In this document: positions 6,341 to 22,579 of the stretch, one piece after another | Layout of the letters: each line of letters begins with the position of its first letter | Numbering within the stretch: position 1 is the stretch's first letter | Sequence record: PQ374922.1 | Origin: a phage | DNA: 64,000 bases | Direction: 5' to 3' (one strand) | Translations under genes and position numbers: made by a program | Notes under the pieces: generated by a model | The model's input: only the letters and a program-made list of their open reading frames with translations | Database searches by the model: none | Told to the model about the DNA's origin: nothing

Positions 6341-7849
6341 ATGGTAGACATTCAGATTGTTAAGGTTAACGAAGTCCGCATGCGTTGCATCGCAGATCTT
6401 TCTATCAGGGAAGAACTTAATGACTACTTCAAATTCGAAGACCCGAACTTCGTTCCCAACCCCTTTTCTAAATGGGACGGGGTTGTCCGCCTATTTACCA
6501 AGTCATCTGGTCTAATCGATATCGGTCTGCTGTTTGAGGTATTTAAGTTCTGTAAGAACAACGGATACACCATTGAACTGGATCCGGCACTGAAGTACAT
6601 TCAGGACATCCCAGATGAAGAAATCCGTGACTTCATCGACAGTCTGCATCCAAAGATCCGCACCGAAAATCACGAATATATCGATGCCGAGACTCGTGAC
6701 TACCAGTACGACACCATCGCCAAGGCTATGCGTCAAACCAGATGCGTCTGTGAACTGGCTACGAGTGCCGGTAAGTCCTTTATTCTGTATGTCATGGCGC
6801 GGTACTACAGGCGGCGCAGAGAAGCTCTCGAAAGTCCTCTGAAGACGCTTATCGTGGTGCCGTCAATCCACCTAGTCACTCAGCTGTACGACAACTTCGA
6901 AGAGTATGCACATGGCAGTGATTGGAAGCCCGTTGTTAACACCCAGCTGATTTTTGAGGGCGCGACAAAGGATATCAGCAAACCAATCGTCATCAGTACA
7001 TGGCAAGGCATTCAAGACCAGCCGAAGGAATGGTTCCACCAGTTCGGTGATATCGTGGTGGATGAAGTGCACACCTCCAAGTCTGAGAAACTGTCTTACA
7101 TCCTAAACAACTGCATCTATGCCGACCAGCGCCTGGGGGTTACAGGTACGCTGGCGAATACCAAAGTTGCCGGGCTTCAGGTGGTGGCTCACTTCGGGGC
7201 GTACCATAAGATCATCACGGCTCGCGATCTTATCAATCTCGGGTACGCCACTGACATCAAAGTGAAGATGATCCAGCTGAAGCACACTCCGGCGGATGCT
7301 GTTGGTCTGGACGGGGATTATTCCAAGGAAATAGAATACCTTATCACACACCAGTCCCGCAACGAACTGATCGCCAAGATGGCACTGAATCTGAAAGGAA
7401 ACGTGGCCATCATGTTCGAACGTATTGATGGTCACATGATGGTCGTGTATGATATGCTGAGCGCGGTCAAGCCCAACGTGTTTGTCATCAACGGGGAAGT
7501 AAAGATCGAAGACCGCCGCCGCATACAGAAAGCGATGGAGGATGGAGAGGACATCACCCTGTTGGCATCATACGGGACAATGCAGCAGGGAGTGTCGATC
7601 AAGAAGCTACACCACCTTGTACTGGCACACCCGAGCAAGTCATATATCCGCGTCATACAGACATTGGGTCGTCTGATGCGTCAGCACTCCTCTAAGGACG
7701 TCGCGTGGATATGGGACTTAGTGGATGATGCATCGTACAACGCCAGCACGAACCACGCTCTTAGGCACTCTCACGAGCGTTACAAGTTTTACCTGGCAGA
7801 GCGCCACCCTGTGGAGTTCATGAAGGTGGCGCTGGGTAATCACGATTAA
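6341..7849 (+). CDS. uvsW: SF2 DNA helicase, UvsW-like
   Basis: Walker A ATSAGKS, DEVH box, helicase C-terminal motifs; start at internal ATG with GGGAGA RBS (ORF track starts at 6248). Confidence 0.7.
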   Translation: MVDIQIVKVNEVRMRCIADLSIREELNDYFKFEDPNFVPNPFSKWDGVVRLFTKSSGLIDIGLLFEVFKFCKNNGYTIELDPALKYIQDIPDEEIRDFIDSLHPKIRTENHEYIDAETRDYQYDTIAKAMRQTRCVCELATSAGKSFILYVMARYYRRRREALESPLKTLIVVPSIHLVTQLYDNFEEYAHGSDWKPVVNTQLIFEGATKDISKPIVISTWQGIQDQPKEWFHQFGDIVVDEVHTSKSEKLSYILNNCIYADQRLGVTGTLANTKVAGLQVVAHFGAYHKIITARDLINLGYATDIKVKMIQLKHTPADAVGLDGDYSKEIEYLITHQSRNELIAKMALNLKGNVAIMFERIDGHMMVVYDMLSAVKPNVFVINGEVKIEDRRRIQKAMEDGEDITLLASYGTMQQGVSIKKLHHLVLAHPSKSYIRVIQTLGRLMRQHSSKDVAWIWDLVDDASYNASTNHALRHSHERYKFYLAERHPVEFMKVALGNHD

Positions 7850-13530: not shown

Positions 13531-15549
13531 ATGTCAGATTTTAAGCCCTTCGCAGTAGCTGTCAACAATAACGTGCTGGCCATGTCAGCAACTGGTCTGT
13601 TCATGACCAACATCGATAAAGATGCTCTGTGGGATCTGTATCTGTCTTCTTTCCCTGCTGGCACTAACCCGCTTTATCGTGAGCGTACCGAGCACGACTG
13701 TACCTGCTGCAAACAATTCATCCGTAACATCGGCGGTGTAGTCACCATCGACTCCGATCTGAACGTGATCTCTATCTGGGATAACATTCAGCTGGGTAAC
13801 GAATACGACGTTGTCGCTGCGGCGCTGTCAGCATATGTTAAGCAGCACGCAATCGTCGACGTGTACTTCAACGACACCAAGAAAGTTGGTGTTGAATCGA
13901 ATCACGAAATGAAAGACGGTATTGTCCGCACCTACAACCACTTCCACACCGACCTGCTGGGCAGCTATGTTCTGCGGGCAGATACCATCGCTTCTAAGAA
14001 GGGTGAAATCCGCCAGGCGATTGAAGTGTTTGAGCGCGGCCTGCGTGAACTGTCTCTGGAATCGGCTGAAATCGTTCTGGAATTGATCGACCAGAATTCT
14101 CTGTATCGCGGTGAAGAGCACAAAGCGGCAGTGCAGGCGTTCGTGGTGAACAAGACCCTGTACGAACAAACTGCAGAAGAGAAACGCGCTCTGTGGGCTT
14201 GGCGCACTGGCTACCGTGCAAACGGTCATACCCCTCACGGCATTCGTAATACCGTGATTGGCTCTCTGCTGGTAGACCTCAATGAAGGCCGGGATCTGGA
14301 AACCGCCGTGAAGTCCTTTGAAGCCAAAGTCGCTCCGACGAACTACAAGCGCCCAACCGCGCTGGTCACGAAATCCATGATTGAAAACGCGCAGAAAGAA
14401 GTCGAAGCGCTGGGTCTGACTGATTCACTGGGTCGCCGTTATGCCGTGTATGACGATCTGACCATCAACAACGTTCTGTTCGCCGACCTAGCAGCTCAGA
14501 AGAAGATGGACCCGTTTGCTCAGCTGGCGTCTGAAGTGAAGACTCCGACCAAGTCCCTGGACAAGGTTGAAGAGATCACGATCGACGACTTCCTGACCAA
14601 CGTGTTGCCAAAGGCGCATTCCCTGGAAGTGCTGGTCGAAAACTCTCACATTGGCAACCTGATGTCCCTGATCGCTCCGGCCACCGCAGGCGCTCCTAAC
14701 CTGTTCAAGTGGAACAACGGCTTCAGCTGGTCGTACAATGGCGAAGTGGCCGACTCCATCAAAGAGCGCGTGAAGACCGCAGGCGGCAATGTCGACAGCT
14801 TCCTCCGTGTGTCACTGGCTTGGCATAACAACGACGACCTGGATCTGAGCCTGAACGATCCTCTTCACAACCACGTGTATTATCACAACCGTCGTTCGAC
14901 AACTGGCGCAACTCTAGACATCGACATGAACGGTATGGACGGCATTGATCCAAACCGCCGTCCGGTGGAGAACATCTTCTTCAGCGATGAACGCAAGCTG
15001 CGTGATGGTCTGTACGAGTTCTATGTCACTAACTTCAGCCAGCGTGAAACCTGTGATATGGGCTTCGAAATCGAAGTTGAATACAAAGGCCAGACCAAGC
15101 GTTTTTCGCATCCTGGCCTGAAGCACAAAGATCGCACTCTGGCTGTTGTGATTGATGTCCGCGCTGGACAAGTGGTAGACATCCGTTCTACCCTGAAAGA
15201 CGACGCTCGCTCTCAGGAAATCTGGGGCATCAAGACCTCCGTCTTCCAGAAGGTACAGCTGGTTCTGAACTCACCAAACCATTGGGACGGCGAGCAGACT
15301 GGCAACAAGCACGTGTTCTTCATCCTGGAAGGTTGTGCTAACCCTGTCGGCACCCGTGGTTTCTATAACGAATATCTGAAGCCGGAACTTGATAAACACC
15401 GCAAGGTTTTTGAAATGTTAGGTGGTAAGATTAAAGTACAGCCAAGCACTGAGCAGCTGTCCGGTCTGGGCTTCTCTACCACCCAACGCAACCACGTGTT
15501 CGTGAAGGTGAGCGGTTCGTTCAACCGCACTGTGAAAGTTGTGTTCTAA
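13531..15549 (+). CDS. hypothetical protein (672 aa), highly codon-optimised
   Basis: Long ORF with strongly E. coli-optimal codons; no Walker or polymerase motifs seen. Confidence 0.65.
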   Translation: MSDFKPFAVAVNNNVLAMSATGLFMTNIDKDALWDLYLSSFPAGTNPLYRERTEHDCTCCKQFIRNIGGVVTIDSDLNVISIWDNIQLGNEYDVVAAALSAYVKQHAIVDVYFNDTKKVGVESNHEMKDGIVRTYNHFHTDLLGSYVLRADTIASKKGEIRQAIEVFERGLRELSLESAEIVLELIDQNSLYRGEEHKAAVQAFVVNKTLYEQTAEEKRALWAWRTGYRANGHTPHGIRNTVIGSLLVDLNEGRDLETAVKSFEAKVAPTNYKRPTALVTKSMIENAQKEVEALGLTDSLGRRYAVYDDLTINNVLFADLAAQKKMDPFAQLASEVKTPTKSLDKVEEITIDDFLTNVLPKAHSLEVLVENSHIGNLMSLIAPATAGAPNLFKWNNGFSWSYNGEVADSIKERVKTAGGNVDSFLRVSLAWHNNDDLDLSLNDPLHNHVYYHNRRSTTGATLDIDMNGMDGIDPNRRPVENIFFSDERKLRDGLYEFYVTNFSQRETCDMGFEIEVEYKGQTKRFSHPGLKHKDRTLAVVIDVRAGQVVDIRSTLKDDARSQEIWGIKTSVFQKVQLVLNSPNHWDGEQTGNKHVFFILEGCANPVGTRGFYNEYLKPELDKHRKVFEMLGGKIKVQPSTEQLSGLGFSTTQRNHVFVKVSGSFNRTVKVVF

Positions 15550-15987: not shown

Positions 15988-16016
15988 AACCCCGCCATGT
16001 GCGGGGTTTCTTTTGG
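15988..16016 (+). terminator. rho-independent terminator
   Basis: aaccccgc-catgt-gcggggtt followed by tcttttgg. Confidence 0.7.
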
Positions 16017-16025
16017 ACAAAGAAT

Positions 16026-16436
16026 ATGAAACTTGTCATCTGTGATTACTGCGGCCTCCTAGCCGAATTCGTCGGTGGTGATGTTCTCTACCCTCATCGC
16101 CCTGACCTCCGCAATCTGAAGTTCTGGGTTTGTACCCCATGTGATGCCCGTGTCGGTTGCCATGCCCATGGCGACGGCAGACAACCTCTGGGAAGGATGG
16201 CGAATGCCGCTCTCCGTGCCGAGAAGCAAAAAGCCCATAGATCGTTTGACCCATTATGGAAAGGCGGAGAGAGGAGCAGGAGCGACGCTTACAGTTGGCT
16301 GGCGCATAAGCTGGGGATAAAGAAGCGTGAGTGTCATATTGGCTTGTTCGATATCGACATGTGCCGTAAAGTAGTTGTTGTCTGTCAACAATACGAGGCA
16401 CATATCAATGTCAAAGGAAATACAAGAAGCGTTTGA
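16026..16436 (+). CDS. Cys-rich zinc-binding protein (136 aa)
   Basis: CDYCG...CTPCDARVGCHAH cysteine pairs; internal ATG of ORF 15999..16436. Confidence 0.5.
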   Translation: MKLVICDYCGLLAEFVGGDVLYPHRPDLRNLKFWVCTPCDARVGCHAHGDGRQPLGRMANAALRAEKQKAHRSFDPLWKGGERSRSDAYSWLAHKLGIKKRECHIGLFDIDMCRKVVVVCQQYEAHINVKGNTRSV

Positions 16437-17062: not shown

Positions 17063-17917
17063 ATGTTTCGTTTGAAATTGAACGACCAAGATGTGTTCTA
17101 CAAACACTTCACCTTCCCAGGTGGTGAGGAACATATCAAGATTCAAAAGTCTGGTATCCCTATCGGCCACGTTCAGAACGTGGCGATTGATGCTCACATC
17201 AAATCATCGGCTGACTTCATTGAGCTGGCGCTTCTGGTAAACGCCGTTCGTGGTCTGGGTAACGTGGACCGTCTGACGACATTCCATGCGTATATCCCTT
17301 ACTTCCCGTATGCTCGCCAGGACCGCCATTGTGACTTCGGTGAGCCTCTGTCTGTGAAGTGGGCGGCTGAGTTCATCAATAGCATGAACTTTGACCGCGT
17401 GGCGATCAAAGATCCTCACAGCCATGTTGTGTCTTCTCTGATCAACAACGTCCATGTTGTCCCGCAAGATTACATCGTGCGTCAGTATCTGGGCTGGTTC
17501 ATCCGTGGGAACAACGCTGTGTTGGTAGCCCCTGACGGCGGCGCGGCTAAGAAGACCGAAGCCCTCAGTCTGTCGTTGGACGGTGTTCCTGTTGTCTACG
17601 GTCACAAGAACCGTGACACCAAGACTGGTGAGATCATTGGGGTGAGTATTACGAACCCTGAACTGATCAAAGACCGCTATCTGGTGGTGGTCGATGATAT
17701 CTGCGACGGTGGGCGCACGTTCGTTGAGTTAGGCAAAGAGCTTCAGAAGCACAAGCCTAAGCACATGACGCTCTTCGTTACCCATGGCATCTTCAGCAAA
17801 GGTCTCTCTGTTTTCGACGGGATCTATGATGCTGTGTATGCCGACACTGTCTGGTGGGAGAACATCACCGCCGACGGGCTTCCTTTCAAAACTGAAAATA
17901 CAGGACGTGTAAAATGA
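17063..17917 (+). CDS. ribose-phosphate pyrophosphokinase (PRPP synthetase) family; Prs or ADP-ribose pyrophosphokinase (Adps)-like
   Basis: IPYFPYARQDR and PRPP-binding VVVDDICDGGRTF motifs; 284 aa, shorter than cellular Prs. Confidence 0.85.
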   Translation: MFRLKLNDQDVFYKHFTFPGGEEHIKIQKSGIPIGHVQNVAIDAHIKSSADFIELALLVNAVRGLGNVDRLTTFHAYIPYFPYARQDRHCDFGEPLSVKWAAEFINSMNFDRVAIKDPHSHVVSSLINNVHVVPQDYIVRQYLGWFIRGNNAVLVAPDGGAAKKTEALSLSLDGVPVVYGHKNRDTKTGEIIGVSITNPELIKDRYLVVVDDICDGGRTFVELGKELQKHKPKHMTLFVTHGIFSKGLSVFDGIYDAVYADTVWWENITADGLPFKTENTGRVK

Positions 17918-19578
17918 GCATGCGCCACTTAGACCCAATCCATGCGATCGACTTCTACAAATCGGGGCACATCTATCAGTTCCCTGAAGGCAGTGAGCTG
18001 GTGTTCTCCAACGGAACTCCGCGCTCTAACAAACTGTTCAACTCTCACCTGCCGAAGAACGGCGTGGTGGTCTGGGGCATCCAGGGCTTCATGACCTGGT
18101 TCCACGAACTGTTTGACGAAGCATTCTTCCAGCGCCCGAAGGCCAAGGTGCTGAAGAAGTATGCCCGTCGCATGAACAAAGTCCTGGGTCCAGGCCGCGT
18201 CGGCACAGAGCATATTGAAGCCCTGCATGACCTCGGCTACCTGCCTATCGAAGTCCGTGCGCTGCCTGAAGGCACCATGTGTCCGTATGGCGTTCCGGTG
18301 TATGTGATGTTCAATACCCTGCCGGAGTTCTACTGGCTGACCAACTATCTGGAGACTGTGTTCAGCTCTGAGATCTGGAAGCCGATGACGAACGCCACCA
18401 TAGCTCTGCATTACAAGGCACTGATGGTGAAAGCTGCCCTCGCTACGGGAGTATCACCAGACCATTGGTTCATCGACTACCAAGGTCACGACTTCTCCTT
18501 CCGTGGTATGAGCGGGTGGCATGACGCCGCGTCTTCCGGTTCCGGTCATCTGGTGTTCTTCAAAGGCACCGACACCAACCCTGCCCTGGACTTCGTAGAA
18601 GAGTATTATGGCGCAGACATCGACGAAGACTATGTCGTTGCTGGGTCGGTTGCCGCAACGGAACATGCGGTGATGTGTATGGGCACGAAGGATGGTGAAT
18701 TCGAAACCTTCCGCCGCCTGGTGCAGGACGTGTATCCTGATGGCATCGTCAGCATCGTGTCTGATGCGTGGGATTACTGGCAGGTCATCGACGACTATCT
18801 GCCTCGCCTGAAAGACATTATCATGGCGCGCAATGGTAAAGTCGTGATCCGCCCCGACTCGGGCGACCCTGTACACATCGTCGGCGGCTACCGCATCGAG
18901 GGGTTCAAAGACCGCGCTACGCTGAACATCAGCGGCGTGTCTAGCAGCACCGAAGTTATCCACATCGAAGAGACGAACACCTATCACCTGATCACAGGCG
19001 AAGGCACGATCAACTCTCTGATGGCAGATGACCGTAATATCATCAGCCGTTCAGAAGCGGTCGGCTCTATCCAGCGCCTGTGGGAGATCTTTGGTGGCAC
19101 CCAGACTGAAACTGGGCACTTCCTGTTGGATGAGCACATCGGCCTGATCTACGGTGATTCTATCACCCTGGCGCGTGAAGACCAGATCTTTAGCCGTCTG
19201 GCTGACCGGAACTTCGCTTCCATCAACGTGGTGTTCGGTATCGGTTCCTACACCTACCAGATGAACACCCGTGACAGTACTGGCACAGCAGTGAAAGCCA
19301 CGGCTGGTAAAGTGAACGGTGAATTCCGTGAGATCTTCAAAGAGCCGAAGACCGATAAAGGCGGGACTAAAAAGTCTGCGCGTGGTTTCCTTAAAGTCAT
19401 TAAAGACCCTCAGGGTAAACTAGTGTTGGTTGACGGTATCACTTTTGATCAGGTGCAAGACGCCGACAACCAGCACCAGCTGGTGTATCGTGATGGCGAG
19501 TTCTTCAATACTCAAACACTGGAAGATGCGCGTGTTCGTGCTGCTCCTCTGGTGACGGAACTGGCATCACAAATCTGA
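17914..19578 (+). CDS. nicotinamide phosphoribosyltransferase family (NadV/NAMPT or Namat-like)
   Basis: 554-aa ORF translationally coupled to Prs-like gene (ATGA overlap); recognised as NAMPT-type phosphoribosyltransferase by overall sequence pattern. Confidence 0.8.
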   Translation: MSMRHLDPIHAIDFYKSGHIYQFPEGSELVFSNGTPRSNKLFNSHLPKNGVVVWGIQGFMTWFHELFDEAFFQRPKAKVLKKYARRMNKVLGPGRVGTEHIEALHDLGYLPIEVRALPEGTMCPYGVPVYVMFNTLPEFYWLTNYLETVFSSEIWKPMTNATIALHYKALMVKAALATGVSPDHWFIDYQGHDFSFRGMSGWHDAASSGSGHLVFFKGTDTNPALDFVEEYYGADIDEDYVVAGSVAATEHAVMCMGTKDGEFETFRRLVQDVYPDGIVSIVSDAWDYWQVIDDYLPRLKDIIMARNGKVVIRPDSGDPVHIVGGYRIEGFKDRATLNISGVSSSTEVIHIEETNTYHLITGEGTINSLMADDRNIISRSEAVGSIQRLWEIFGGTQTETGHFLLDEHIGLIYGDSITLAREDQIFSRLADRNFASINVVFGIGSYTYQMNTRDSTGTAVKATAGKVNGEFREIFKEPKTDKGGTKKSARGFLKVIKDPQGKLVLVDGITFDQVQDADNQHQLVYRDGEFFNTQTLEDARVRAAPLVTELASQI

Positions 19579-19585
19579 TAACCGA

Positions 19586-19609
19586 AGGGGAGGCAACTCC
19601 CCTGTTTTG
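19586..19609 (+). terminator. rho-independent terminator after NAMPT-like gene
   Basis: aggggag-gcaa-ctcccct followed by gtttt. Confidence 0.7.
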
Positions 19610-19680: not shown

Positions 19681-19896
19681 ATGATACTGAAAGAATGTTT
19701 TACCGACCTGAAGGCGACGTCTGAAAGTATTCCGGCTTGCATTCAGAACTATGCTCCAAAGGATGTGCTCTTGGCTCAGCTGGAGCAGTCTCGTGAATTT
19801 ATCAACAATATGCTGGACTCTGTAAAGACGCGCATCGAAGCCGCTGATGAGTCTGAACTTAACCCTTACGCACAAGGCGAAGAAAACAATGATTGA
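19681..19896 (+). CDS. hypothetical small protein (71 aa)
   Basis: ORF after terminator; weak RBS. Confidence 0.3.
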   Translation: MILKECFTDLKATSESIPACIQNYAPKDVLLAQLEQSREFINNMLDSVKTRIEAADESELNPYAQGEENND

Positions 19897-22090
19897 ATCA
19901 TTAGAATTTAAGAATGCGGTTGCGACTGCTGCCCCGTCCAACCATGTAATCGTTGTAGACATTTCCGGCTCTATGTACCGTGCGCTCCCTGAAGTCCGCA
20001 AGCACCTGAAGGAGAACCTGCCATCCCTGGTGAAACCGGAAGACACTGTGAGTGTTCTATACTTCTCATCCAAAGGCGACTTTGGTACTGTGTTCGCTGG
20101 CCGTCAGATCAATGCAGCATCCGACCTGAGCGAAATCAACAATCTGATTGACCGCTTCCTGAAACCGTCTGGTTGCACTGGCTTTGTTGAGCCGTTGAAA
20201 CTGGCGATGGACACTGCTCGTGGCCTGAAGAAGCCTGGCTATGTCAACAACCTGGCGTTCATGACTGACGGGTATGACAACTGCTGGCGTACCAACGAAA
20301 TTCTACTGGTTGCTGAGACCCTGCCATTTGCTTTCGATAACATTACATTTATTGAATATGGCTGGTACTGTAACCGCGAACTGCTGGCGCAGATGGCCGA
20401 ACGCTCTGGTGCTACTCACGTGTTTGCCGAAGGTCAGACCGAATACCAGACCGAACTGGAAAACGTGCTGAAGTCATCAGTGCCGAAGGTGAAAGTTGAT
20501 GTCCCAGTCATCTACACCCATGCCATCTACGTCGAAAACGGTGTGGCAACAGTACTGGCGGTGCAGGACGATGACTCTCACCCGGTCGGCTATGTGAGCA
20601 TCCCTGAGAGCATCACCAAGCTGTGGGTTGTAAACCCTAACATGATCGACCAGCTTGATGCGCTGGCGGATATCCAGGCGGCATACGTGCTGGCGTTCTA
20701 CGGCGTACACATCATGGACGCGGACCTGGTGTGGGCTGCACTGAAGAAAACGGGTGACGTTCGCTTCATCAAACAGTACAGCAACTGCTTCACCAAGCAG
20801 GACTACTCCAACATCAAGAACGATCTGGTTCAGGCGATTGTTGACGACCAGCTGCGCGGCGTTGACGGTATTGACTATGACCTGGTTCCGGCTGAAGATG
20901 CGACCACCGTCGTTGATGTGCTGACGTACCTGGCTGAAGCTGGTGTGCCTGTTGCTACCAAGCATCCGATGTTCTCCTATAAGAGCATCGGGCGCGGTAC
21001 TGTGCAGAAAACCGACGACACCGAAGACAAGCTGGCAGAACAGATCGCGAATGCTCAGTCCAAAGAAGAGCGTAAAGCCCTGGCTCTCAAGCTGGCAGAA
21101 CACGAAGAGTGGAACCCGACGTTCGAACCTACCAACGACCTGGGTGTTGTGCCAATCAGCGATTTGGTCTATAACTCCGAGCGCCCGAACATCAGTGTGC
21201 GTACAATTCAACACGGTACTGTGGCTGTGCCTGAATTCGCACAGAAGAAGTTTGGCCTGCCTGAAGAACTGGACACTTTCCAGTGGCGCAACTACACCAT
21301 CGTCAAAGACGGCATCATCAACGTGAAGACTCTGCCGTTCAAGGCTGATATCGAAGTTGTACAGAAGCTGATCGAAATGGGCGTCCACGTGTTTGGTGGT
21401 CCGGAAGTGTTCATCCTGAACCTGGAAAGCGTACCACTGGTCAACCGCGCCATGGTCAAGAACATCAGTGCTGCTCAGTTCTTTGCGGATAATGTCCGTT
21501 TGGAAGCCCTGAAAGGCAAGCAGAAGGTGCTGAAGTTCTATCGAGACGCCCTGGTTGGTAAGGGTAACGCCAAAGGCCTGGCAGTACAGTACGGTGCTGA
21601 GGCGGCCGAGTTCCTGTCCTCCTACGGTATCCGCGATTACGGCTTCTCACCGAAGACTGAGACCAAAGAGTCTACCGACTTCTACATGAGCCGTGAGCTG
21701 AACGTTAAGATCGCCGGGGCGTCTTCACTACCGAGCATCGCGGCAGTACAGAAGAAGATCGCAGAGAATAAGAAACTCAATGCTGGTGACTTGTTTATCG
21801 CCAATGCTCTGAAAGAGTACGAAGCATTCGTGAAGTCTCCTATGATCACTGCCGTGCCTGAAGCCTTACAGAAACAGCTGATCGAAAACTGGATCGACGC
21901 TGCTGCCAAGGCGGCCATCACCGAAGTCCGTGCCCTGAACAAGACACTGTCTAAAGTGGTGTATGGTATCGTTGCTGGCCACGGCTGGTTCACCGACCTC
22001 GACCTGGAAGAGTCCACCATGGAAGTTGAAGTGGATGGCGTGAAGTACAAGGTCACTGCCGAACTGACAGAGAAAGAAATCAAAATCTAA
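19889..22090 (+). CDS. von Willebrand factor A (vWA) domain protein (733 aa)
   Basis: MIDAS motif VIVVDISGSM...FMTDGYDN near N-terminus; internal ATG 19889 chosen. Confidence 0.7.
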   Translation: MIESLEFKNAVATAAPSNHVIVVDISGSMYRALPEVRKHLKENLPSLVKPEDTVSVLYFSSKGDFGTVFAGRQINAASDLSEINNLIDRFLKPSGCTGFVEPLKLAMDTARGLKKPGYVNNLAFMTDGYDNCWRTNEILLVAETLPFAFDNITFIEYGWYCNRELLAQMAERSGATHVFAEGQTEYQTELENVLKSSVPKVKVDVPVIYTHAIYVENGVATVLAVQDDDSHPVGYVSIPESITKLWVVNPNMIDQLDALADIQAAYVLAFYGVHIMDADLVWAALKKTGDVRFIKQYSNCFTKQDYSNIKNDLVQAIVDDQLRGVDGIDYDLVPAEDATTVVDVLTYLAEAGVPVATKHPMFSYKSIGRGTVQKTDDTEDKLAEQIANAQSKEERKALALKLAEHEEWNPTFEPTNDLGVVPISDLVYNSERPNISVRTIQHGTVAVPEFAQKKFGLPEELDTFQWRNYTIVKDGIINVKTLPFKADIEVVQKLIEMGVHVFGGPEVFILNLESVPLVNRAMVKNISAAQFFADNVRLEALKGKQKVLKFYRDALVGKGNAKGLAVQYGAEAAEFLSSYGIRDYGFSPKTETKESTDFYMSRELNVKIAGASSLPSIAAVQKKIAENKKLNAGDLFIANALKEYEAFVKSPMITAVPEALQKQLIENWIDAAAKAAITEVRALNKTLSKVVYGIVAGHGWFTDLDLEESTMEVEVDGVKYKVTAELTEKEIKI

Positions 22091-22095
22091 TCCAA

Positions 22096-22120
22096 CGGGC
22101 GGGGCAACCCGCCTTTCTTT
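22096..22120 (+). terminator. rho-independent terminator after vWA gene
   Basis: gggcggg-gcaa-cccgcc followed by tttcttt. Confidence 0.7.
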
Positions 22121-22132
22121 GGGAGAAGTAGC

Positions 22133-22456
22133 ATGAGCAGTAAACCAACATATGTTGAAGTCATGCGTCATCTGGCTCAGTACGCCACTGACAATCTGAA
22201 TATGGATCTGTGGCGTGACGATGACAAGCGCAAATTGCTGGACGACGTGGCATCTCAGAACGAGGACGCCCTGGACAAGCTGGCTGGCCTCCGTACCAAG
22301 AAAGACCTCGGCGGTGATGAACTGGATGCCATCGAAATTGTAATGGAACTAGAAGAAGAGTTCAACGTCGAAATCGACGACGGTTGGCTGGGTAGTAAAG
22401 GTGATGACCCGACCATGGGTGAACTCGCTGAACTCGTGGTTGCCCTGCGCAAATAA
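22133..22456 (+). CDS. acyl carrier protein homolog lacking phosphopantetheine-attachment serine
   Basis: KDLGGDELDAIEIVMELEEEFNVEI aligns with ACP [24 protein letters not shown], with Ser replaced by Glu. Confidence 0.7.
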   Translation: MSSKPTYVEVMRHLAQYATDNLNMDLWRDDDKRKLLDDVASQNEDALDKLAGLRTKKDLGGDELDAIEIVMELEEEFNVEIDDGWLGSKGDDPTMGELAELVVALRK

Positions 22457-22579
22457 CAGAAGCCCCCAACAAACGTTGGGGATTTTTACTTTTAGGGGTT
22501 TACTTCCTCTAAGGAATGTCCTATTATTCAATAACTGGCGAACGATGGCGTTCACCAGATTGAGATGAAGGATTACATT

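Follow-up and report, generated by a model that had tools for sequence, protein, structure and literature searches.

The 64,000-nucleotide stretch of phage DNA analyzed here (sequence record PQ374922.1; hereafter the window) carries a gene whose 733-aa product joins an N-terminal von Willebrand factor A (vWA) domain to a large C-terminal module. Judged from its sequence and those of its relatives, the vWA domain with its metal-ion-dependent adhesion site (MIDAS) is genuine, far beyond chance, and the C-terminal ~480 residues are predicted to form a compact, confidently modelled module whose fold has no counterpart in Pfam or the PDB. The label "vWA protein" covers a third of the protein, and the other two-thirds are a distinct unclassified domain. 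The product is probably an intracellular binding protein, neither a part of the virion nor a partner of the neighboring acyl carrier protein-like (ACP-like) gene, and we tentatively propose that it acts inside the infected cell as a stand-alone, non-structural, metal-dependent protein-binding adaptor or scaffold. Both the gene itself and its vWA label were known before this work, and the label stands in the GenBank records of EspM4VN, pertopsoe, Gloob and ISTP3. Apparently new, as far as we searched, are the distinct nature of the remaining two-thirds, the breadth of the fixed fusion and the finding that no gene accompanies it as a partner.

A vWA head with an invariant MIDAS motif

The Pfam VWA model (PF00092) matched residues 20–184 with 27.7 bits against a curated cut-off of 23.8 (E 3.6e-6). 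Across 45 aligned homologues, which reach down to 33% identity, the full MIDAS set of D24, S26, S28, T97 and D127 was invariant. The relatives collected from viral and genome collections fell into 39 lineages at 60% vWA-protein identity, and DxSxS together with [ST]DG was kept in all 35 lineages that have a complete N-terminus. The three marks of the vWA superfamily, i.e., a Pfam match above threshold, a Rossmann-like fold that superposes on vWA domains of solved structure and the whole MIDAS motif, were all found. An earlier sequence-only reading of the window had called a gene of ~730 aa at 19889–22090 with an intact MIDAS motif (DISGSM ... TDGYDN), and both calls hold: the open reading frame (ORF) is present and yields 733 aa from 19889, with DISGS at residues 24–28 and TDGYDN at residues 126–131.

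An AlphaFold2 model of the full-length protein, computed from the 45-sequence alignment, reached a predicted local distance difference test (pLDDT) value of 86.4 and a predicted template modelling (pTM) score of 0.68. It placed the vWA domain at residues ~17–198, five β-strands at 200–248, a helical stretch at 250–318 and a mixed α/β region from there to the C-terminus. Structure comparison returned 4fx5 (23.0, 288), ITIH1 (22.0, 275), ArnB (8s05; 21.8, 265) and Sec24 (15.9, 299), and Foldseek concurred with these matches; the head is therefore built as a vWA trunk with a β-sandwich of the kind seen in ArnB, Sec23/24 and ITIH proteins. The protein has an isoelectric point (pI) of 5.1, a maximum 19-residue Kyte-Doolittle score of 1.45, i.e., no hydrophobic segment, and only four Cys residues, from which we infer a soluble cytoplasmic protein without zinc fingers. 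Neither a signal peptide nor a membrane segment was found by sequence properties.

A C-terminal module without known relatives and its fixed fusion to the head

The sequence-only reading had left the last ~500 residues unassigned, and searches with this region of the window protein agreed, as Pfam, NCBIfam, PADLOC and PDB sequence profiles returned no match to it (A1 matched only via the vWA head). Pfam searches with 30 diverse C-terminal modules, allowing E up to 1, gave no consistent match either. Fold searches with the full-length model returned vWA matches only, and the module alone found no match among the solved structures in the PDB, so that no gelsolin-like domain is present. A set of polar residues, R432, N434, S436, D474-G475, K546, D597 and Y599, was invariant or nearly so even in very distant members, and these residues lie in the conserved motifs RPNxS, RNYTIxKDG and DFY. 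The charged helical segment DTEDKLAEQIANAQSKEERKALALKLAE (residues ~380–404; columns 131–180 of alignment A4) was kept in some lineages and cleanly missing from many others, and is therefore an optional insertion in the module.

The protein is a full-length member of phrog_2426 (E = 0), a family of unknown function, and a word-indexed search yielded 188 full-length relatives. A profile of the C-terminal module only was run against 1.84 billion cluster representatives (clusters at 50% identity), resulting in 1,323 clusters, 831 of them with E ≤ 1e-30. Nearly all were 680–820 aa in length with the module starting at residue ~250–300, and in ten of the more distant members only VWA models matched at the N-terminus. 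Since nearly all of these clusters show the vWA-plus-module layout, the fusion is fixed and the module essentially never occurs without the head.

By tblastn, the module was found in 502 of 50,697 phage records with one copy per genome. The carriers were Ackermannviridae, T4-like phages of the RB43, KP15, Miller and JC221 types, and Pseudomonas phage pf16, Ralstonia phage RP13 and Rhizobium phages; IMG/VR added jumbo contigs of 300–450 kb and a giant-virus metagenome-assembled genome. Taken by host or carrier, the family is present in phages that infect Proteobacteria or Bacillus, on a contig of a Bacteroidota genome and probably in giant viruses. Only six loci were found among 185,579 bacterial and archaeal species genomes, and one of these (L010) lies in an ordinary chromosomal context that gives no clue to function. 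Distant members with an intact MIDAS motif were also observed on three AT-rich sources: a GVMAG contig (L086, 29% GC), where the gene is near a eukaryotic-type Ser/Thr kinase; a related 166-kb contig (L085, 35% GC), where an LRR_6 protein adjoins it; and a third (L002, 27% GC) with contigs of up to 1.36 Mb. Many ankyrin-repeat proteins are also among the neighbors, and this gene content on AT-rich DNA points to giant viruses or to symbionts living inside eukaryotic cells.

Literature on the family is sparse. Weak vWA matches in RB43 ORF119c and Aeh1 ORF154c were tabulated in 2006 (PMC1524935). No paper that we found assigns a function to the family, and a 2024 review of Ackermannviridae does not mention the protein. 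No literature linking a vWA domain protein to phage anti-defence was found and PADLOC models gave no match, and reports on RNA sequencing, early genes and the virion proteomes of KP15 and KP27 held nothing useful for the family. Both a new Pfam family and a solved structure are well-defined goals for this protein. Its gene is core to the Ackermannviridae, phages in wide use for the biocontrol and therapy of Salmonella, E. coli O157, Klebsiella and Dickeya.

Genomic setting, neighboring genes and the search for a partner

The window region showed 96% DNA identity to Escherichia phages YX22, LHE287 and AV101 and ~90% to Shigella phage Ag3 and Enterobacter phage EspM4VN. The latter is classified in the genus Agtrevirus of the Ackermannviridae, and the window phage is an Agtrevirus-like member of that family. 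The features of the locus are collected in Table 1.

Table 1. Positions in the window of the vWA gene, its protein domains and motifs, and the surrounding genes and hairpins.
Feature	Position	Strand	Basis or remark
Gene for the 733-aa vWA-plus-novel-module protein, stop codon included	19889..22090	+	ORF; full-length phrog_2426 match, E = 0; 188 full-length homologues
vWA (Rossmann-like α/β) domain, residues ~17-198	19937..20482	+	
MIDAS loop 1, D24-I-S26-G-S28	19958..19972	+	read from sequence; invariant in 45 homologues; in 35/35 full-length lineages
MIDAS threonine T97 (in GCTGF)	20177..20179	+	invariant column
MIDAS loop 3, T126-D127-G-Y-D-N131	20264..20281	+	D127, G128, D130, N131 invariant; aligns to LLTDG motif of ArnB 8s05
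β-sandwich after the vWA domain, residues ~199-249	20483..20635	+	probably joined by N-terminal strand 3-6
C-terminal family-specific module, residues 250-733	20636..22087	+	no detectable relative among known domains or folds
Charged helical segment in the module	~21026-21100		optional insertion
71-aa ORF (phrog_20065)	19681..19896	+	stop overlaps vWA start by 8 nt (read from sequence)
Terminator-like hairpin after the NAMPT-like gene	19586-19603, tail to 19609	+	7-bp stem, GCAA loop, GUUUUG tail; fold -14 kcal/mol, z -2.1
Terminator-like hairpin 7 nt past the vWA stop	22097-22114, tail to 22122	+	terminator scan; fold -15.8 kcal/mol, z -3.0
Third stable GC-rich hairpin with U-tract	22464-22481		
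672-aa protein (phrog_1735)	13531-15549	+	no Pfam, NCBIfam or PADLOC match
DUF3268 zinc-finger protein	15999-16436	+	Pfam E 1.4e-35
Prs-like and Nampt-like genes	17063-19578	+	4-nt overlap
ACP-like protein	22133-22456	+	Pfam PP-binding, 26.7 bits vs cut-off 20.8
Glu63 of the ACP-like protein	22319-22321		in GGDELD; replaces the phosphopantetheine serine

The longest reading of the ORF runs from 19847 to 22090, and the ATG at 19889 corresponds to Met15 of that frame. We preferred the latter start because homologues are mostly 733–734 aa long, conservation begins at "MI...", and this ATG overlaps the stop of the 71-aa ORF. The same overlap is annotated in EspM4VN. An overlap of 8 nt suggests translational coupling, and the two genes are probably co-translated; conservation of the 71-aa ORF beside the vWA gene is confined to Ackermannviridae (lineage groups 6 and 7).

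The genes on the plus strand run in the order clamp loader, RegA, MazG, a 406-aa unknown, a 672-aa unknown, the DUF3268 zinc-finger protein, Prs-like, Nampt-like, the 71-aa ORF, the vWA gene and the ACP-like gene, and further downstream in the window are helicases, SbcC and ribonucleotide reductase. The locus hence belongs to the replication and nucleotide-metabolism part of the genome and lies outside the structural module. Three GC-rich hairpins with U-tracts set the pair of the 71-aa ORF and the vWA gene apart from the ACP-like gene as separate units; the hairpin after the NAMPT-like gene is the upstream boundary of the former.

To survey neighbors, 81 loci with ~10 kb on each side were taken, ORFs were called and clustered by BLASTP, and the results were counted over the 39 lineages. 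The ORF calling was crude and missed the ACP-like ORF in the window, which was then checked by tblastn. No neighboring family occurred in more than six of the 39 lineages. The most frequent were dCMP deaminase, topoisomerase II subunits, a primase-like protein and clamp loader, and others outside the window were ligase, dihydrofolate reductase and thymidylate synthase. A ClpB-like AAA+ protein was seen in three lineages only, all of them jumbo-contig lineages, at a distance of ~3.5 kb; in the other 36 no AAA+ gene was conserved within 10 kb. The family therefore has no conserved partner and specifically no AAA+ partner, and the statement of the sequence-only reading that no AAA+ gene is adjacent is correct both in the window and in relatives.

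The same reading had placed the vWA gene in a shared terminator-delimited block with the ACP-like gene and had suggested that its function is accessory; neither point was supported, although a role in host interaction may still apply. A terminator-like hairpin lies between the two genes, and they adjoin in only two of the 39 lineages. The ACP-like protein is confined to Ackermannviridae-type records (275), whereas the vWA family occurs in 502 records, many of them of T4-like phages, so that ~230 non-Ackermannviridae phage records carry the vWA gene and lack the ACP-like protein. On this distribution the ACP-like protein was rejected as a partner, and the link is lineage-specific synteny. As to the term "accessory", Vi01-like Ackermannviridae have a core genome of 114 genes that includes the vWA gene (PMC10892097), whereas the adjacent NAMPT/RPPK pair is reported to be variable among Agtrevirus phages (review, PMC11721090). 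The Prs-like/Nampt-like pair was present within 10 kb in seven of 20 fetched Ackermannviridae loci. The analysis thus removes a misleading inference of functional coupling between the vWA gene and the ACP-like or NAD-salvage genes (NAD, nicotinamide adenine dinucleotide).

Several of the neighbors deserve mention in their own right. In the ACP-like protein the phosphopantetheine serine of the DSL motif is replaced by Glu, and Glu or Asp was found at this position in every Ackermannviridae homologue examined, so that it cannot carry acyl groups in the conventional way. The Prs-like and Nampt-like genes belong to Pfam families PF14572 (weak), PF04095 and PF18127 (weak). A two-gene NAD+-reconstitution (counter-defence) operon, NARP1, has been described in phage Bas63 (bioRxiv 10.1101/2024.02.11.579819); since gene order and Pfam families match, the window genes may be Adps and Namat and not a true phosphoribosyl pyrophosphate synthetase and NAMPT. 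The 672-aa upstream protein was considered as a partner of the vWA protein and rejected, being unrelated to the 664-aa protein near the Thanatos-1 homologue and differing in phyletic spread. It occurs in 558 phage records (Ackermannviridae, Caulobacter phiCbK, Bacillus Bcp1, Vibrio and Alteromonas phages and a cyanophage) and is labelled "putative DNA-directed RNA polymerase" in a few of them; the proteins with an RNA polymerase label in phage Sajous1, gp179 and gp180, gave three spectra and one spectrum in a virion preparation. A DUF3268 protein is encoded no more than 10 kb away from the vWA-family gene in each of three distinct lineages (also L006 432–989 and L047 ~7155–7541), one of them represented by a 218-kb metagenomic contig with ParM-like and PcfJ-like genes.

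Proposed role, its alternatives and known vWA systems

In the adaptor or scaffold role that we tentatively favor, the MIDAS site would hold Mg2+ or Mn2+ and an Asp or Glu residue of the target protein would complete the coordination; other MIDAS domains clamp an Asp or Glu of their target in the same way. A further activity specific to the family would come from the C-terminal module, as another binding surface or as a catalytic site not yet recognised, and no AAA+ motor would be needed. The target would be something common to large double-stranded DNA (dsDNA) viruses or their hosts, because the gene lies among replication and nucleotide-metabolism genes and because the family occurs across very different hosts and probably in giant viruses. 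A spread over Proteobacteria, Bacillus, Bacteroidota and probable giant viruses makes a virus-intrinsic or universally conserved target more likely than a lineage-specific host protein. A bolder version, possible though rather doubtful, is that the protein is a hitherto unrecognised core factor of large dsDNA viruses (Ackermannviridae, T4-like phages, jumbo phages and giant viruses) in which a Sec23/24-ArnB-like MIDAS head, permanently joined to a new fold of ~480 residues, serves a virus-intrinsic task without an AAA+ motor; such a factor would, for example, organise the replication or deoxynucleoside triphosphate-synthesis machinery or capture a conserved host factor.

Several points weigh against the adaptor role. 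The polar residues conserved in the C-terminal module could equally mark a catalytic site, so that "adaptor" may understate the function. The neighborhood analysis leaves room for a host-encoded or distantly encoded AAA+ partner, and a single virion spectrum (see below) would strictly still allow a packaged protein of low copy number. With regard to the timing of expression, no sigma-70-like promoter was found just upstream of the vWA gene, and the T4 late-promoter motif TATAAATA had two matches in 64 kb, which is uninformative.

We consider it unlikely that the C-terminal module, with its new fold, is catalytic, acting for instance on a protein or nucleotide-metabolism substrate, and that the vWA head only targets or regulates it. 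The invariant polar residues of the RPNxS, RNYTIxKDG and DFY motifs, the compactness and confident modelling of the module and the frequency of nucleotide-metabolism enzymes among the neighbors would fit such an enzyme, but the module resembles no catalytic family in Pfam, NCBIfam or the PDB, is poor in Cys and His and shows no motif recognisable as binding nucleotides or metals, and its conserved residues could equally be structural or belong to an interface. We regard as distinctly unlikely a substrate-recruiting adaptor for a MoxR/CbbQ/NorQ-type AAA+ motor that the host, or the phage at another locus, would encode. Many prokaryotic MIDAS vWA proteins do work in this manner, and the ClpB-like gene of the three jumbo-contig lineages would be a candidate motor; yet such a gene is missing from the vicinity in the remaining lineages and from the window neighbors, known adaptors carry the vWA domain at the C-terminus whereas the phage protein has it at the N-terminus, joined to an unrelated module, and hosts ranging from Bacteroidota to probable eukaryotes make a single host motor unlikely.

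A low-copy virion, tail-associated or ejected protein that uses its vWA domain for adhesion, as vWA adhesins do in pili, appears very improbable. In CsCl-purified particles of Sajous1, gp185 ("VWA domain-containing protein") was represented by one spectrum, the same count as for thymidylate synthase, dUTPase and clamp loader, while tail proteins gave 196–311, and the authors noted that low spectral counts may be contaminants (PMC10892097). Such a count indicates a protein that is expressed and is probably not a major virion component, and neither the location of the gene outside the structural module nor the lack of a signal peptide or membrane segment favors a virion role. A few Klebsiella phage records (PP889490.1, PP889503.1 and PQ657798.1) label homologues "tail protein" or "minor tail protein"; these labels cite no evidence, we found nothing in their support, and they look like an error of automatic annotation. 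Least probable of all, in our view, is the proposal of the sequence-only reading that the protein works with the ACP-like protein, the NAD-salvage pair or both as an accessory host-interaction module. The ACP adjacency is kept in enteric Ackermannviridae and Serratia 3M-like phages, the Glu/Asp of the ACP-like protein could in principle be a MIDAS ligand, and the upstream pair has the gene order and Pfam families of NARP1; against this stand the intervening hairpin, the mismatch in distribution of the ACP-like protein, the variable occurrence of the NAD pair and the core status of the vWA gene.

Compared with known systems, the phage protein shares its head with several and its C-terminal part with none. 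In ITIH1/ITIH4 and the bacterial VIT-vWA proteins the vWA domain plus sandwich is common to both, whereas the C-terminal part of the phage protein is unrelated; ITIH proteins are secreted and carry a VIT domain, whereas the phage protein has no signal peptide and starts its vWA domain at residue ~17, a VIT domain gave no Pfam match, and TIGR03788 scored 28 bits against a cut-off of 552. Sec23/Sec24 of COPII possess a zinc finger and a gelsolin-like domain, both of which are lacking in the phage protein, as evidenced by its four Cys residues and unmatched C-terminal module, and nothing points to a role at membranes. The Ku core β-barrel that would follow the vWA domain in a Ku70/Ku80-like protein was not found. 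CbbO, NorD, ViaA and BchD/CobT are partnered by AAA+ proteins and bear the vWA domain at the opposite end, whereas the phage protein has no conserved AAA+ gene nearby and an unrelated remainder. The structural-genomics entry 4fx5 from Catenulispora acidiphila and archaeal ArnB (PDB 8s05, 5a8j), which the title of its PDB entry calls an orthologue of the Sec23/24 core, have a vWA trunk with a β-sandwich like the phage head; at 380–426 aa they lack the ~400-residue remainder of the C-terminal module, and sequence identity is 11–16%. ArnB partners the FHA/zinc-ribbon protein ArnA, and no such gene is near the phage vWA gene. With phrog_2426 and the GenBank "VWA domain-containing protein" of Ackermannviridae and RB43-type phages there is no difference, as these constitute the same family.

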